DNA of 60,232 nucleotides from Candidatus Hydrothermales bacterium. Its GTDB lineage: Bacteria > Hydrothermota > Hydrothermia > Hydrothermales > JAJRUZ01. Made by a program: the position numbers. Positions 51,001-57,000 of the stretch are shown here, one piece after another (position 1 is the first letter of the stretch; the number at the start of each line of letters is the position of its first letter). The stretch covers positions 1 through 60,232 of the forward strand of contig JBCNUW010000012.1 of NCBI GenBank assembly GCA_039630575.1, read 5' to 3'.

Positions 51001-54000
51001 ACATAATATCATAGTTTTATCTCTTTTAATCTTTCTTTTATGTCTCTCGTTTCGTTATAACTCTTAATAATCTTATAAAAAAGTTGACTTAATCTCATAT
51101 AAAATTATAAGCCTTTTAAAGGTTATTTTTTTTCTAAACTTCAATTCCAAAAATTTTCCTTAAAAGAGTTCCTATTAAAAAACTCAAGAAAGATACAGAG
51201 GTTATAATTAAAAACATTTCAAAAAACTTCTTTTTATAATCTTCATCGTAAACAACTGAAACATAAAAAGTAAAAAGTGCGATTATTATAAAGGAAAATA
51301 ATAAAGAAAATAACAGAGACAAAAAAGGATTTTTAAATAAAAAATAGGGAATTAGAAGTGTAACAACTACAAACAAATACATAATACCAGTATAAAGGGC
51401 TGATAAGAGGGGTTTCCTATCACCTAGTTTTTCAGTCTTAACAGATAAATACTCTGATCCGGCCATTGATAGCGAAGCCGAAAAACCAGCTATAAATGCA
51501 GCTATGGATATAAAGAGAGAATTTCTTAAAGCAAAAGTTAAGCCAGCAAGGGCTCCGGTCAATTCAACAAGAGCATCAGATACTCCTAAAATCATAGAAC
51601 CAACATACTTTAGTCTCTCTTCCTCAATAAAGGAAATAAGTTTCATCTCATGTTCTTTTTCCTCCTTTCTTATATTTAAAAACTCCTCAAAGTTACTTTC
51701 AAGAAACTCGTAGGTTTTTTCAGAAAGTTCCTCACCTTTCTCCATCAGTTTTAAGCCAAAAACTATTCCAAATAGCCTTATTACCAATTTATAAAATAGG
51801 ATCTTTATAATATTTGGCTTAACTTCAACTTTTGTAATCTCCCTTAACTTTTCGTAATGCTTTAGTTCATCTTCTCCAATTTTTTTAATTTTTTCTCTCT
51901 CTTTCCCCTTAATTTTTTCTGATAAGTAAAGGTATACGTAATACTCGGTAATTTCCTTTTTTTGGGCATCAATAAGGATCTTTTTTAATTCCAAACTCTT
52001 AAGTTTTTTTAAATCACTTTTTAGCTACAGGGTGTTTTATCTTTTCAAAAAATTCTTTAGATTTAAATTCCTTATATGTGGGAGATTCTGGATTATGACA
52101 TCTTTTACAAAATTCTTCGTTAGGTTCTATCATTCCTACTTCCTCAGGCTTGGTTTTACCTTCATAGACATTTTTCATAACTTGCATTGATTTATACTCA
52201 GAACCTGGACCATGACAATCCTGACAACCTACCCCCTCTTCACCATCCCATCCATTATGACAGGTAACACATTTTTCGGAAGTTAAAGGATCATCTATTC
52301 CCATTTTCTTTGCAATCTCTTTTGACTTTTCAGTTTTTAAAGTTTCAAAAGCCTTTGCATGAGTAGAATTTTCCCATATTCCCCATTGATTTCCTCTTGC
52401 TTCTGCCTTATGACACATCTTACAAACAGTATTTTTAACATATTCAAATTTCTTTTTTTCCTGAGAATACAAAGTTAAATTTAAAATTCCTAAGATTAAA
52501 ATCACCATCTGTTTATCCTCTAATTTGAAAATTTAGGATTTGAACCTTATTATTAATGATAGAATATCTTTTTAAAAATTTTCAAACAAAGGGTTTTAAA
52601 AATATGACACAACTTGAATACGCAAGAAGTGGAAAAATAACTGACGAAATGAGATATGTTGCAGAAAGTGAAGGAAAAAAACCAGAAGAAATAAGGGAAC
52701 TTATAGCATCGGGCAGAGTGATTATTCCAAGGAATATTAATCACAAAAACCTTTTAAAATTTAGTGGAGTTGGGGAAGGTTTAAAAGTAAAGATAAATAC
52801 AAACATAGGGACATCATATGATTATGTAAATTTAGAGGAAGAAATAGAAAAAGCAAGAATTGCAATCGAATACGGTACTGACACCTTGATGGATCTTTCA
52901 ACTGGAGGAGATATTAAGCAAATAAGGAAAAAAATTTTAGAGATATGTACTGTACCATTTGGAACAGTTCCGATTTATGAAGTTGAATTTACTGTAGCAA
53001 GGGAAAAGGGTTCAATTTTTGAGATGAAAGGGGATGATATTTTTAAGGTAATTGAAGAACACGGGAAAGACGGTGTTGACTTTATAACTGTTCACAGTGG
53101 TATAAACATAGAAACTTTAAAGATCTATCAAAATTCAGGTAGATTAACAGGGATAGTATCAAGGGGTGGAGGGTTAATTGCTGCCTGGATGATTGAAAAT
53201 AAGGAGGAGAACCCTTTATACAAGTATTTTGATAGGCTTTTAGAGATAGCACGGGAATATGATATTACACTTTCACTCGGAGATGGTTTAAGGCCTGGGT
53301 CTATAAACGATTCAACTGATAGAGCTCAAATAGCTGAGTTACTTATAATAGGGGAGCTTGTAGAAAAAGCCAGAAGGGCAGGTGTTCAGGTAATGGTAGA
53401 AGGTCCAGGGCATGTTCCATTAAATGAAATAAAAACAAATATTCAAATACAAAAAAAATTAACAAAAAATGCTCCTTTTTATATTCTTGGGATGCTTCCT
53501 ACTGACCGAGCTGCTGGTTTTGATCATATTGCTGGTGCTATAGGTGGTGCAATTGCCGGATGGTACGGAGCTGATATGCTTTGCTATATAACACCTGCAG
53601 AACATCTTGGTTTACCCGATGTAAATCATGTTAAAGAAGGTGTAATTGCCTTTAAAATAGCAGCTCACATCGCTGATATTGCAAGAGGAAATATTAACGC
53701 ATTAAAAGAAAACAGAGAAATGAGTGAGGCAAGATATAGACTTAATTGGGAAAAACAATTTGAACTTGCCCTTTTTCCTAAAGAAGCAAGAGAAATATTT
53801 GAAAAAAGAAAAAGTAACACTCAAGCTTGTTCCATGTGCGGACCCTTCTGTCCCATGAATCTTGTTGAAAAAATTCTTAAAAGAGTTTAAATATAAAATA
53901 GCTTCTTCAATATTTATATAAAAAAAGCCGGGTTCTCTTTAATTTTCAATTTAGTTTTTCTAAAATTCAGGAACCTTTTCTTTAAACTCCTTTAATTTAG

Positions 54001-57000
54001 GAACAGCTCCCTCGGCTTGAATCTCTCCGTAAGGTGTTATAACCTGGGCTCTTCCTACTATCTTAAAAGCAGAAGTGTATTCTGTTAATTGACAGACTAT
54101 TATCTCTCCATTTGATAAAATTTCTGTATGAGAAACTCTTGTCTGCAAACCTCTTGTAAGCCCCATTATTCTAACTCCATCTTCGAGTGCTTTTATAACA
54201 AGATACGGGTTACCATGGACAGGGTTTCTGTCCTCATATATATTCTTTTTTATTGTTTGCTCTCTTTTTGTCCCTTCTTCGTAATTTAACATACTTTTCC
54301 TCCTTTTTAAAACTTTCTTTTTAAAATACGGAAAATTTTAAAATAGAGAACCCGGCTCATTTATAATTTTAAATCATTTTTAACAAAATCTTCAAGAACC
54401 TTTAGACTCCTTTGAGCAACAAATTCCATCTTCTTTTTTCTATTTTTTATAGCATCAATACCTGGATATAAGGAAAGATTAATGTTCATAGGAGAGAACC
54501 TTTTTGGATCTGAGGAGGTTATATAATTAATAAGAGCTCCAACTGATGTTTCTTTTGGAAAAACAATAGTCCTTTTGTGTTTTAAATAAAAATAAGCATT
54601 TAAACCAGCCACAAGACCAGAAGCTACTGCCTCTGTATAACCCTCTGTCCCTGAAATCTGTCCTGCAAAATATATTCTTCTTTCTTTCTTTAAACTTAAA
54701 TCTGGATTTAAAAGTTTAGGACCTAAGATATATGAATTTCTATGAACTGCACCATACCTTAAAAATTCTGCCCTTTGAAGACCTTTTATCATCCTAAAAA
54801 TCCTCTCCTGCTCCTTTATTTTTAGCTGAGTTTGAAAACCCACTAAGGAGAAACTTTTACCTTCCAAATCTTCTCTTCTTAACTGAACACAGGCAAAAGG
54901 TGTTTTACCTGTTTTCGGATCCTTAATACCATCAGGTCTTAAAGGACCGTATCTCAAAGTATCGAAGCCTCTTCTTGCCATTTCCTCAATAGGTAAACAG
55001 CCTTCAAAAAAATTTACTTCTCTTTCAAAATCATGGGGCCTGTGAATCTCTCCGTTTACAAGTTCTTTCCAGAAAATAGTATACTCCTCATAGTCCATTA
55101 TGGAGTTTAAATAGCCCTCATCATCTAATCCGTGTCTATCTTTAAAAAATAGCTTACTCATATCTAAGGAATCTCCTGAAACAATAGGTGAAAGTGCATC
55201 GTAAAAGTAGAAAAACTCTGAACCAGTTAGTTTTTTAATTTCATCGGCTATTTCACCTTCTGTTAAAGGTCCTGTAGCAACTATAACTATACCATCATCC
55301 GGTATCCTCGTAACTTCCTCTCTTTTTACCTCTACGTTTGGATGATGCTCAATTATTTCTGTAAGATACTTTGAGAATTCTTCTCTGTCTACTGTTAGGG
55401 CTTTACCACCAGGTAAAGAAAACTTAAAGGCAGCTTCTATGACAATTGAGCCGAGTCTTCTCAGTTCTTCTTTCAAAAGTCCGTGTGGGTGAGTAATTTC
55501 TTTTGATTTAAATGAGTTTGAGCAAACAAGTTCAGCAAAATAAGGAGTCCTGTGTGCAGGTGTGCTTTTTTTGGGTCTTTTTTCAAAAAGAATTACTTTA
55601 CAGTTTCTTTTTGCTATTTGCCAAGCTGCCTCTACTCCTGCTAATCCAGCTCCTAATACATATATCTTCTCACTCATCTGTAACAAAATTATCAATCAGT
55701 TTTTTTGGAACCTCCTCAAAAAGATCGCTAATCCTTTTTAAATTTTTAAAATTATTTGAAATTTTCATTCTACTTGTCAGACAAAAAGAAGGAATTTTGA
55801 AATAATTTCCTATTAAAACAAGGGAGAAAGTTCCAACCTTATTTATTATCTTATCTTCATAAACTGCATCTGCCCCAAATATTATGGCATCTAATTGATT
55901 TGTAACCTTCGTAACATAGAAATCGGGAATTAATTTTGTCTCAAAACCAACTTTTTTTAACTCCTTCTCTGTAATTCTACCCTCTTCACCAGGTCTTGAC
56001 TCAGTACAGTATACAGTGGGACTAAAATTACTATCGATTCTTTTTAATTCTTTTAAAACCTTAATAGTAGTTGAACTTCTTGAGTGTAAAAGGATACTCT
56101 TTACATCTTTTAAAAGGTCATAAACTTTTTCCGATATCTTTTTTGGTGTCTCTTCAACTCTTCTGGTTAAATCAATTAAAAAATCTTTCAAATTCTCTTC
56201 ATTTACCTTAACTGTTTCTTCTAACAATTTGTAGAAAACAGCCATTGAGGGGTGAGTTTCTATAATTTTTGAGATAGCTTTTAAAAATTCTTCCTTTTCA
56301 ATTTTTTTTCTTGAGGTTAAAACACCTTTAAGAAAAATCAAAAGAAGTTCTTCACTACCTGATTTAAAATCTTTAAGTATTTTATGAACGATAGATTCCA
56401 TTTAAAAGCTTTGAGCGGGGGACGGGGCTTGAACCCGCAACCATCGGCTTGGAAGGCCGATGCTCTACCCATTGAGCTACCCCCGCATTAAATGGGAGGG
56501 GAAGGATTCGAACCCTCGAAGGCGTAAAGCCAGCGGGTTTACAGCCCGCCCCCTTTGTCCACTTGGGTACCCTCCCAAAAGCCGGGGGAGGGATTTGAAC
56601 CCACGCCCTGCTGATTACAAATCAGCTGCTCTACCTCTGAGCTACCCCGGCTTTTTACTAATTTATTATAAAATCAATGGACTCAAAATTCAATAACCCT
56701 ATGAAACTCTTAAACCAGGTTCCACTAACTTTTCAGTTGTTAATAGCACTATACCTCCCTTATCCTTTTCAACCGCCAAAAGCATACCCTCTGACAAAAT
56801 TCCTTTTATCTTTCTTGGTTTCAAATTATTTAAAATTATTACATTTTTACCTTTTAACTCATCCTTACTATAACTTTCCTTTATTCCAGCTACTAATGTC
56901 TTAACCTCCTTTCCTATATCAACTTCTAGTCTATAAAGCTTATCTGAACCCTCAATGTCGTAAACATTAACAATCCTTCCAACAACTAAATCTAACTTAT

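Follow-up and report, generated by a model that had tools for sequence, protein, structure and literature searches.

The window analysed here, 60,232 bp of contig JBCNUW010000012.1 (Candidatus Hydrothermales bacterium, WOR-3; GCA_039630575.1, genome G000), encodes a homologue of TRAP (MtrB, the trp RNA-binding attenuation protein) that is very probably no trp attenuator, and whose most likely role is to sense an amino acid and to act on RNA resembling tRNA or on tRNA-modifying machinery. Its RNA-reading rim looks rebuilt, not erased. TRAP is a textbook allosteric ring that, to our knowledge, is known solely as a trp regulator; a lineage in which the ligand gate is kept and the output face rebuilt would offer a direct test of gate-rim coupling, and its protein is probably a thermostable scaffold with a new specificity. 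Neither a WOR-3 TRAP nor a non-trp TRAP was found in the literature searched, which covered few subscription papers.

Gene layout and distribution

The TRAP-like ORF follows directly on trmFO, both on the reverse strand, in the following setting:

53960..54292 (-): TRAP/MtrB-like gene, 110 aa; TRAP core at 28-95, N- and C-terminal extensions of low confidence in the model
54299..54305 (-): strong Shine-Dalgarno, 7-nt match, outside the closing helix described below
54361..55677 (-): trmFO, folate/FAD-dependent tRNA m5U54 methyltransferase (NF003739, 583 bits, cut-off 262; TIGR00137, 557 bits, cut-off 429)
55670..56401 (-): eIF2B-alpha/beta/delta-like gene, 5' of trmFO in both families
56413..56652 (-): tRNA-Thr, -Tyr and -Gly cluster at the head of the transcription unit
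52556..53890 (+): thiC, convergent, outside the unit of the TRAP-like gene
7363..8658 (+): stand-alone TrpB2, leader without a (G/U)AG array

Rfam matches were limited to tRNAs, and Shine-Dalgarno matches of at least 7 nt precede 166 of the 1709 called ORFs. The order comprises the family of the window's genome (f1) and a second family (f2), which have the gene order eIF2B-like, trmFO, TRAP-like in common. In all five f2-type loci the TRAP-like gene overlaps the trmFO stop by 8 nt, and in all eight f1 loci having trmFO it lies behind it in the same orientation; downstream, a Trm14-like THUMP methyltransferase and/or a 5-formyl-THF cyclo-ligase is encoded in loci L003, L005 and L011-L013. The preliminary description had the gene always following trmFO, which does not hold: trmFO lies upstream in 13 of 14 distinct loci, and in L014, which lacks it, the gene is divergent from a thrS-like gene. 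Since the f1 gene also has its own promoter-like site and an end-paired mRNA (see below), the trmFO linkage is weaker than earlier claimed. Moreover, trmFO occurs without the TRAP-like gene in three genomes checked from other families, so TrmFO does not need the TRAP-like protein.

PF02081 proteins were detected in 9 of 272 genomes of the phylum, all nine among the 11 genomes of the order, as the earlier restriction to this order had it; a horizontal origin is therefore likely from this sequence distribution, though the TRAP tree, built on 68-78 columns, did not single out a donor lineage. An occurrence outside Bacillota is not unique, as P0027, a TRAP labelled Synergistales, has K37/K56/R58 intact. 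Two genomes of the order without the TRAP-like gene say nothing on co-loss, as in G008 trmFO is missing too, along with thiC and the eIF2B-like orthologue, and the trmFO of G005 is interrupted at a contig end. Viral copies were not found, nor were fused forms in a weak search, and leads from the ESM Atlas all scored <0.9.

TRAP fold, ligand pocket and RNA-reading rim

The ORF matches Pfam TrpBP with 95 bits (E 2.5e-27; cut-off 21.3), and its structure model (all models being monomers) has the fold of TRAP/MtrB from Bacillus subtilis and Geobacillus stearothermophilus (PF02081; 1WAP, 1C9S, 1QAW), with a Foldseek probability of 1.00 and an rmsd of 0.7 A over 70 columns at 50% identity to 1c9s_G. 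The alignment to 1WAP is gapless (query position = B. subtilis number + 21) and upholds the correspondences proposed earlier, namely E36 to E57, K37 to I58, K56 to K77 and R58 to V79. Shared with TRAP/MtrB are the amino-acid contacts of the BC loop (TRG..T) and DE loop (Q.T..T) as well as E36, E42 and K56. In contrast to TRAP/MtrB, the clade carries F32V, K37I, D39S, R58V, N20R, H33S and I55F/Y, has conserved extensions at both ends and no (G/U)AG target found, sits with tRNA genes and trmFO, and scores below the NCBIfam MtrB equivalog cut-off (94.4 bits against 117 for the window's protein).

The KKR RNA-binding motif of TRAP consists of K37, K56 and R58 (PMC3048579); it reads I, K, V in 19/19 clade proteins, extending the invariance of I58, K77 and V79 reported before, and likewise in P0121. 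All four exchanges F32V, K37I, D39S and R58V, which affect RNA-touching side chains, are found in 19/19; the preliminary description listed just those at 37 and 58, and N20R, H33S, I22M, I55F/Y and F48L/I are likewise additions to it. Of these residues in TRAP, F32 stacks on G3 and D39 contacts G1, while E36 contacts G3 and bonds H34 and K56 as well (PMC4854314); the RNA contacts are described as completely conserved, with D39 dispensable in Bacillus TRAP (PMC1474065). Among 75 other TRAP representatives, 33 do not conserve F32. The earlier wording 'without RNA-contact residues' goes too far: E36, K56 and E42 are retained, with an invariant new Arg at position 20 (N20R; R41 in the query). In the model, strands 40-46 and 53-59 set R41 opposite E57/I58 (register inferred, +/- one residue), by which the rim would retain two basic and two acidic residues; R41 probably adjoins the site of the lost Lys. 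The kept E36, K56 and E42 together with this Arg indicate that RNA binding may have been retuned. E36 and K56 are possibly retained for structure.

Outside the clade, position 20 is basic in 2/8 proteins without a basic residue 58 vs 1/65 with one (Fisher p 0.03; of 103 rows, 73 could be aligned and the other 30 were left out). This covariation is not counted as independent support, P0147 possibly being of shared ancestry with the clade. Like the clade, P0147 and P0149 have Val at 58 and have lost K37, with Lys at 20, but they lack the extensions; P0147 falls beside the clade with weak support, and P0149, whose pocket loop is gone, is placed unreliably.

In the ligand pocket, T25, R26, G27, T30, Q47, T49 and T52 are kept in 19/19 proteins (T25, G27, T30, Q47, T49 and T52 being polar Trp contacts), as described earlier; the same claim needs correcting for S53, which is Ser in the window's protein and Ala in 13/19. 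The positions that we take to line the hydrophobic indole pocket have changed or vary (I22M, A46C/V/A, H51Y/F/H, I55F/Y), and further clade changes include H33S and F48L/I. Of the Trp contacts in TRAP, T30 and T49 are the essential ones and S53 can be dispensed with (PMC1474065).

Purifying selection is evident from a dN/dS of 0.036-0.102 against seven relatives. Rim residues R41, V53, E57, I58, S60, K77 and V79 are invariant among proteins of just 58-63% identity, and the clade tree has a stem branch of 1.19 with short tips, in agreement with the earlier view of a protein retargeted, not decayed.

Tryptophan genes and (G/U)AG targets

The reported absence of trp genes is correct for the operon in the window's genome, and has to be amended for the TrpB2 at 7363-8658 and for G001, the one genome of 11 in the order with a whole trp operon. 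TrpA and TrpC are absent from the other 10/11, and TrpB2 is present in 5/5 genomes checked. G001 also carries the TRAP-like gene; the attenuators of its trp leader are leader peptides in tandem, and its trp region showed no (G/U)AG array (longest chain 3). This amounts to a natural test of the earlier view that the protein does not serve trp attenuation, and supports that view well. In G000, no trp-leader target with about 11 (G/U)AG repeats was found, the re-scan returning the same genome-wide maxima as before: five repeats with 2-3-nt spacers (two places) and six with 1-4-nt spacers (one place). Among 1709 leaders, other triplet chains were confined to GAA/AGA/AAG/CTT low-complexity runs (A/T-only triplets excluded). 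Anti-TRAP was over its cut-off in 0/5 genomes.

A closing helix around the TRAP-like gene

The flanks of the TRAP-like gene are joined by a helix of 13-14 bp in the window, preceded by a promoter-like site:

54366..54395 (-): sigma70-like site with modest support, within the last trmFO codons; 9/12 consensus matches, 18-nt spacer
54345..54358 (-): 5' arm of closing helix, starting two bases past the trmFO stop codon
53925..53938 (-): 3' arm of closing helix, 21 nt past the TRAP-like stop codon

The helix occurs in 9/9 f1-type and 0/5 f2-type loci. Its core (10 positions in 9 loci) is paired in 90/90 cells, and in an unfitted alignment of the arms 90.2% of cells pair and double changes number 8 (0/500 shuffles); the sense strand has 3 G-U pairs vs 1 A-C in 108 cells. 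At the DNA level the 13-bp repeat is perfect and occurs once in the genome. The start predicted from the sigma70-like site would coincide with the 5' arm; its -35 Leu codon is identical in 8/8 loci, as are 6/27 control Leu columns, and the region holds 14 promoter-like sites vs 8.4 +/- 2.8 by chance.

The HU gene has a closing helix in 9/9 loci of the order, both families being represented. In B. subtilis, a 14-nt complementary pair between the 5'- and 3'-UTR of the hbs (HU) mRNA controls RNase Y cleavage and half-life (PMC5737220). The present helix resembles it as a UTR-joining pair across a short ORF, in genomes that encode RNase Y (5/5) and whose HU gene also has the helix; it differs in that the 5' arm apparently opens the transcript, as predicted from sequence, and in that RNase J (0/5 over cut-off) and RNase III (0/5) were not detected. 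A covarying helix behind a promoter-like site, as at HU, suggests that the f1 TRAP-like gene has a stable stand-alone mRNA, and would add covariation-backed cases of bacterial mRNAs with paired ends, from a lineage in which no RNase III was detected. Codon bias says little on high expression here, HU itself scoring at the 18th percentile and the reference set being mixed.

Three candidates were rejected: an RNase III processing stem (TIGR02191 in 0/5 genomes, all 93-96% complete), ACP as a fourth end-paired gene (helix in 1/11 loci), and a giant-loop intrinsic terminator as a general explanation, the U tract being clear in L001 (U7 at 53920-53926, at the end of the 3' arm in the window's genome), displaced in L004 and L011, absent from the other six and thus not conserved in most relatives.

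Candidate partners and function

The reading that we tentatively favour is a ring under amino-acid gating whose target is now T-arm-type RNA or the machinery of TrmFO. The gene would have been acquired by the ancestor of the order, and its product would still form a TRAP-type ring with amino-acid pockets between subunits, as the kept polar contacts imply. The ligand may be Trp or, as I55 has turned Phe/Tyr, another aromatic or bulky amino acid. Attenuation of trp genes appears lost, which is strongly supported, and the outer rim seems to have been remodelled once and then frozen, which points to a conserved partner of another kind, shared by the two families. As a best guess this partner would be a structured RNA of the tRNA T-arm type, the element methylated by TrmFO, whose minimal substrate is a T-arm stem-loop with G53-C61 and U54U55C56 (PMC6418473); amino-acid supply would then govern how far tRNA T-arms are accessible or protected. 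In f2 the protein would be made in step with TrmFO through the gene overlap, and in f1 the promoter-like site and hbs-type helix would have been gained, giving a long-lived message and presumably more protein. The neighbours, tRNA genes and genes of tRNA enzymes, support this reading.

The same family f1 is the one in which T-arm-like hairpins would also have spread into mRNA leaders. The T-arm motif has 155-252 matches in 6/6 f1 genomes, compared with 43-64 in 5/5 f2 genomes and 44-96 in 50 other genomes of the class; G000 has 111 copies outside tRNAs, 85 of them located <=80 nt before a start codon, and 59/103 mimics have stems of just 2-3 bp. The T-arm excess and the closing helix thus split alike, f1 having both and f2 neither. 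If the T-arm is the partner, the protein would be the missing reader of these unexplained leader hairpins. Against the favoured reading, the coincidence of helix and mimics in f1 is a single evolutionary event, f2 shares the rim without the mimics, many mimics have the short stems noted above, L014 lacks trmFO, the three genomes from other families have trmFO without the gene, and E36 and K56 may be structural; the helices flanking HU in both families make the helix a lineage habit, not one specific to the T-arm idea.

The more hydrophobic rim (V53, I58, V79) would equally fit contact with another protein or with the tail of the protein itself. A less likely alternative is a ligand-sensing ring that docks on, and allosterically regulates, either TrmFO or the eIF2B-like product of the same operon; it draws on the f2 overlap, the shared gene order, the gained Val/Ile and the use of the same surface by Bacillus anti-TRAP (PMC1474065), yet L014 parts the gene from trmFO, the f1 promoter-like site and helix would break stoichiometry, and anti-TRAP was not detected over cut-off in the five genomes. 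A complex prediction of TrmFO with three TRAP-like copies scored 0.00 (mark 0.32; controls not folded) and weighs neither for nor against docking.

Of similarly low likelihood is that the ring still wraps single-stranded RNA, its repeat code having changed or loosened, at a target invisible to the scan (irregular spacing, rRNA, sRNA or unassembled DNA). The retained E36, K56 and E42, the gained R20 and the variability of F32 elsewhere would allow it, as would the A2 contact, made through the main chain of K37, and the harmlessness of K37A in T30V TRAP (PMC1474065); however, R58A and E36A abolish binding even in T30V TRAP (PMC1474065), no (G/U)AG chain exceeds 5-6, and no suitable triplet chain emerged from the 1709 leaders.

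Rather improbable is an abundant amino-acid sink or buffer without a macromolecular partner, in a Trp auxotroph salvaging indole via TrpB2. A retained pocket beside a broken KKR motif, the missing TrpA and TrpC and the HU-like mRNA design agree with it, but a rim without use would be expected to drift, the gene is unchanged in the prototroph G001, and f2 shows no more than a coupling of the gene to trmFO.

Somewhat more doubtful still is the extension of the favoured reading by which the f1 ring, gated by an amino acid and with its code swapped from (G/U)AG to the T-loop, would read T-arm-like hairpins in dozens to >100 mRNA leaders, and TrmFO would write m5U on these hairpins as well; if true, it would be a genome-wide post-transcriptional regulon made from tRNA parts.

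A decaying relic carried with trmFO, or a mobile or invertible cassette bounded by the inverted repeat, is very improbable: the perfect, unique repeat and the likely horizontal origin would suit it, but the low dN/dS, co-changing arms with sense-strand G-U pairs, the single orientation behind trmFO, the lack of a viral copy in our searches and the shared design of HU argue against it. Least credible of all is a normal trp attenuator whose substitutions are tolerated, as the database name MtrB and the near-identical fold would have it, given the loss of two of three KKR residues, the sub-threshold equivalog score, the missing target in G000 and the leader peptides of G001.

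Locus, distribution and family assignment

In the window, genes for tRNA-Thr, tRNA-Tyr and tRNA-Gly are followed by an eIF2B-like gene, trmFO and, after a 68-nt gap, the TRAP (MtrB)-like ORF, on which thiC converges.

53960-54292, minus strand: TRAP-like ORF, 110 aa, assigned by Pfam TrpBP and predicted fold
54361-55677, minus strand: trmFO, directly 5' of the TRAP-like ORF
55670-56401, minus strand: short eIF2B-like gene, closest solved relative PDB 1vb5
52556-53890, plus strand: thiC; no TPP riboswitch reached the Rfam gathering score here

Pfam TrpBP matched the ORF with 95 bits, 1WAP aligned to it without gaps at an offset of +21, and the predicted model superposed on TRAP at 0.7 A, while the NCBIfam MtrB equivalog cut-off was not reached (94.4 vs 117). 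The protein is thus a TRAP family member by fold, yet it fails the RNA-motif and target tests of a working TRAP. The eIF2B-like protein has close orthologues in nine of the 11 genomes of the order; in the rest of the class its orthologues are all distant.

PF02081 was detected in 9 of 272 genomes of the phylum, all within the window's order (9/11), in whose two remaining genomes the region is absent or cut. Source-given names of the clade proteins are WOR-3/Hydrothermales, and a scan of all species genomes returned seven loci under the titles WOR-3, Hydrothermus or uncultured bacterium, which were not counted as additional. A cultured thermophilic WOR-3 strain exists, for which a passage of PMC12285271 gives 60.6% G+C, compared with 30% here. 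The preliminary description placed the gene always behind trmFO; this arrangement occurs in 13 of 14 distinct loci, the exception being L014.

There the gene is divergent from a presumably thrS-like gene and precedes a presumably mgtE-like frame. Loci typical of the window's family (f1-type, n=9) provide the gene with a separate leader, and in those typical of the order's other family (f2-type, n=5) it overlaps the trmFO stop by 8 nt. One f2-type copy, L010 (G010:C6), comes from an f1 genome whose contamination is 8%, and probably sits on a misbinned contig. Downstream of the gene, L003, L005 and L011-L013 carry a Trm14-like methyltransferase and/or a 5-formyl-THF cyclo-ligase, both below equivalog cut-offs. 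The dN/dS values of the gene (0.036-0.102 against seven relatives) point to strong selection, and the long stem (1.19) and short tips of the clade are what a sequence tree would show if the function had changed and then stayed fixed.

A probably rebuilt RNA rim and retained polar amino-acid contacts

According to passages of PMC1474065, E36, K37, K56 and R58 (B. subtilis numbering) are the principal RNA contacts of TRAP, and T30 and T49 are essential Trp contacts; a passage of PMC4854314 adds stacking of F32 on G3, a D39-G1 bond, an E42-R58 pair, and further bonds from E36 to H34 and K56. Among 19 clade proteins (that of the window and 18 homologues), N20R, I22M, F32V, H33S, K37I, D39S and R58V are universal, position 48 (Phe in TRAP) is Leu or Ile and position 55 (Ile) is Phe or Tyr. 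The reported loss of K37 and R58 therefore stands, and the count rises from two to four replaced RNA-touching side chains with F32V and D39S. Retained are T25, R26, G27, T30, H34, E36, E42, Q47, T49, T52 and K56, and S53 is Ala in 13/19. A twentieth clade-type protein, P0121, has the same residues apart from Leu at 33. Ile37, Ser39, Val58 and Arg20 occur in none of 75 other TRAP 50%-cluster representatives; Val58 with Lys20 was found in two more of 28 TRAP-like proteins (P0147 and P0149). A divergent TRAP-like protein, P0036, has an altered TRG loop and T49.

The predicted model has strands at 40-46 and 53-59, in which the new Arg41 (position 20 of TRAP) would face E57/I58, with a register uncertain by one residue. 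With this placement the rim, which has three basic and three acidic residues in TRAP, would keep two of each kind, so that the modelled rim looks rebuilt rather than stripped.

Evidence against trp attenuation

The preliminary finding that G000, the window's genome, lacks a (G/U)AG site was borne out, the longest chains being five triplets with 2-3-nt spacers and six with 1-4-nt spacers; its 1709 leaders contained no other triplet arrays except low-complexity runs. TrpA and TrpC were present in one of 11 genomes of the order (G001) and chorismate-binding enzymes in one of five genomes, and all five, including that of the window, encode TrpB2.

7363-8658, plus strand: stand-alone TrpB2 gene, preceded by a long AT-rich region in which no genes are called
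L070:9757-10076 (G001:C11), minus strand: tandem leader-peptide attenuators of the trp-aro operon, both containing Tyr/Trp/Phe codons and their own terminator

G001 carries both the TRAP-like gene (L006) and a trp-aro operon, in whose 14-kb region (G/U)AG chains reach at most three. The operon leader contains two short ORFs with runs of Tyr/Trp/Phe codons, and behind each stand a GC-rich hairpin and a U tract, the arrangement of tandem ribosome-mediated attenuation. G001 thus shows the TRAP-like protein retained without a trp-attenuation job, although this test is limited by the possibility that G001 gained the operon late. With leader peptides in place of a (G/U)AG array in G001 and no target in G000, the protein very probably does not serve trp attenuation, in agreement with the preliminary description. 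A second, longer beta-eliminating lyase, possibly a tryptophanase or tyrosine phenol-lyase, is encoded in one of five genomes (L064, G002:C2:10429-11550).

A probable closing helix around the ORF

A perfect 13-bp inverted repeat (53926-53938 and 54345-54357), unique in G000 with up to one mismatch allowed, flanks the TRAP-like ORF. Its helix ranks second among the flank-to-flank helices of 1671 genes (-30.9 vs a mean of -12.3, sd 2.4), 1/20000 random flank pairs were as good, and the whole 448-nt RNA folds with a z of -4.6. The helix is present in 9/9 f1-type and 0/5 f2-type loci. In a core-anchored alignment, 90/90 cells were paired over ten positions, five of which showed double changes; an unfitted alignment, in which L014 is off register by one, gave 90.2% pairing and eight double changes, matched in 0/500 shuffles, a control inflated by the relatedness of the loci. 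An RNA structure is very likely. In 8/9 f1-type loci, including the trmFO-less L014, the same place before the 5' arm holds a promoter-like site, predicted with modest confidence, whose spacer measures 18 nt.

A precedent is the B. subtilis hbs mRNA, in which, according to a passage of PMC5737220, 14-bp pairing between the 5'- and 3'-UTR limits RNase Y cleavage. All five near-complete genomes (G000, G001, G002, G006 and G007) contain RNase Y; RNase III, and RNase J over the cut-off, were found in none of these five. By analogy, we read the closing helix as putative mRNA protection, which would predict an abundant TRAP-like protein in f1.

Closing helices are a habit of this lineage.

L025:484-820 (G000:C34), also L028-L035 and L037: HU gene with closing helix, arm sequences differing between f1 and f2
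L027 (G000:C23:31062-31391, minus strand), also L097-L100: small lipoprotein-like gene (weak LIC_13076 match), enclosed by a perfect closing helix of 19 bp

The HU gene shares the design of the TRAP-like gene, a consensus promoter followed by the 5' arm of a GC-rich closing helix, in 9/9 loci of the order; elsewhere in the class, 8/21 loci have a helix that reaches -23.7 or better. The helix of the lipoprotein-like gene, the strongest in G000, is kept in four of five loci and missing at the broken copy L101. A 13-bp inverted repeat at G000:C3:23017-23544 surrounds a KH-domain gene and lies within rpsP and rimM-like coding sequence.

T-arm hairpins and the possible partner

Outside its 47 tRNAs, G000 contains 111 copies of the T-arm motif, the element methylated by TrmFO, 85 of them at most 80 nt before a start codon; near starts, 103 are sense and 11 antisense when tRNAs are included. 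Matches number 155-252 per genome in 6/6 f1 genomes, 43-64 in 5/5 f2 genomes and 44-96 in 50 others. TrmFO itself requires nothing beyond a T-arm-type stem-loop, as stated in a passage of PMC6418473. The f1 lineage both multiplied T-arms and gave the gene its own stabilised message, and the rim is equal in f1 and f2, which both have tRNAs; this fits a T-arm-type ligand. The coincidence in f1 is a single event in a lineage where closing helices are habitual, and a T-arm mechanism for the TRAP-like protein is put forward tentatively. Less likely alternatives are a protein partner and, equally, single-stranded RNA read by a changed code; a plain amino-acid sink is slightly less likely again. Our literature search found no published description of such a TRAP-like protein.

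One of the 85 leader copies of the T-arm-like motif (52536-52546, minus strand) lies 38 nt before a multiheme cytochrome gene (52014-52508). This gene belongs to a stretch (47597-52508, minus strand) made up of multiheme cytochrome c genes and cytochrome b-like membrane genes, among which lies a VIT1-family gene.
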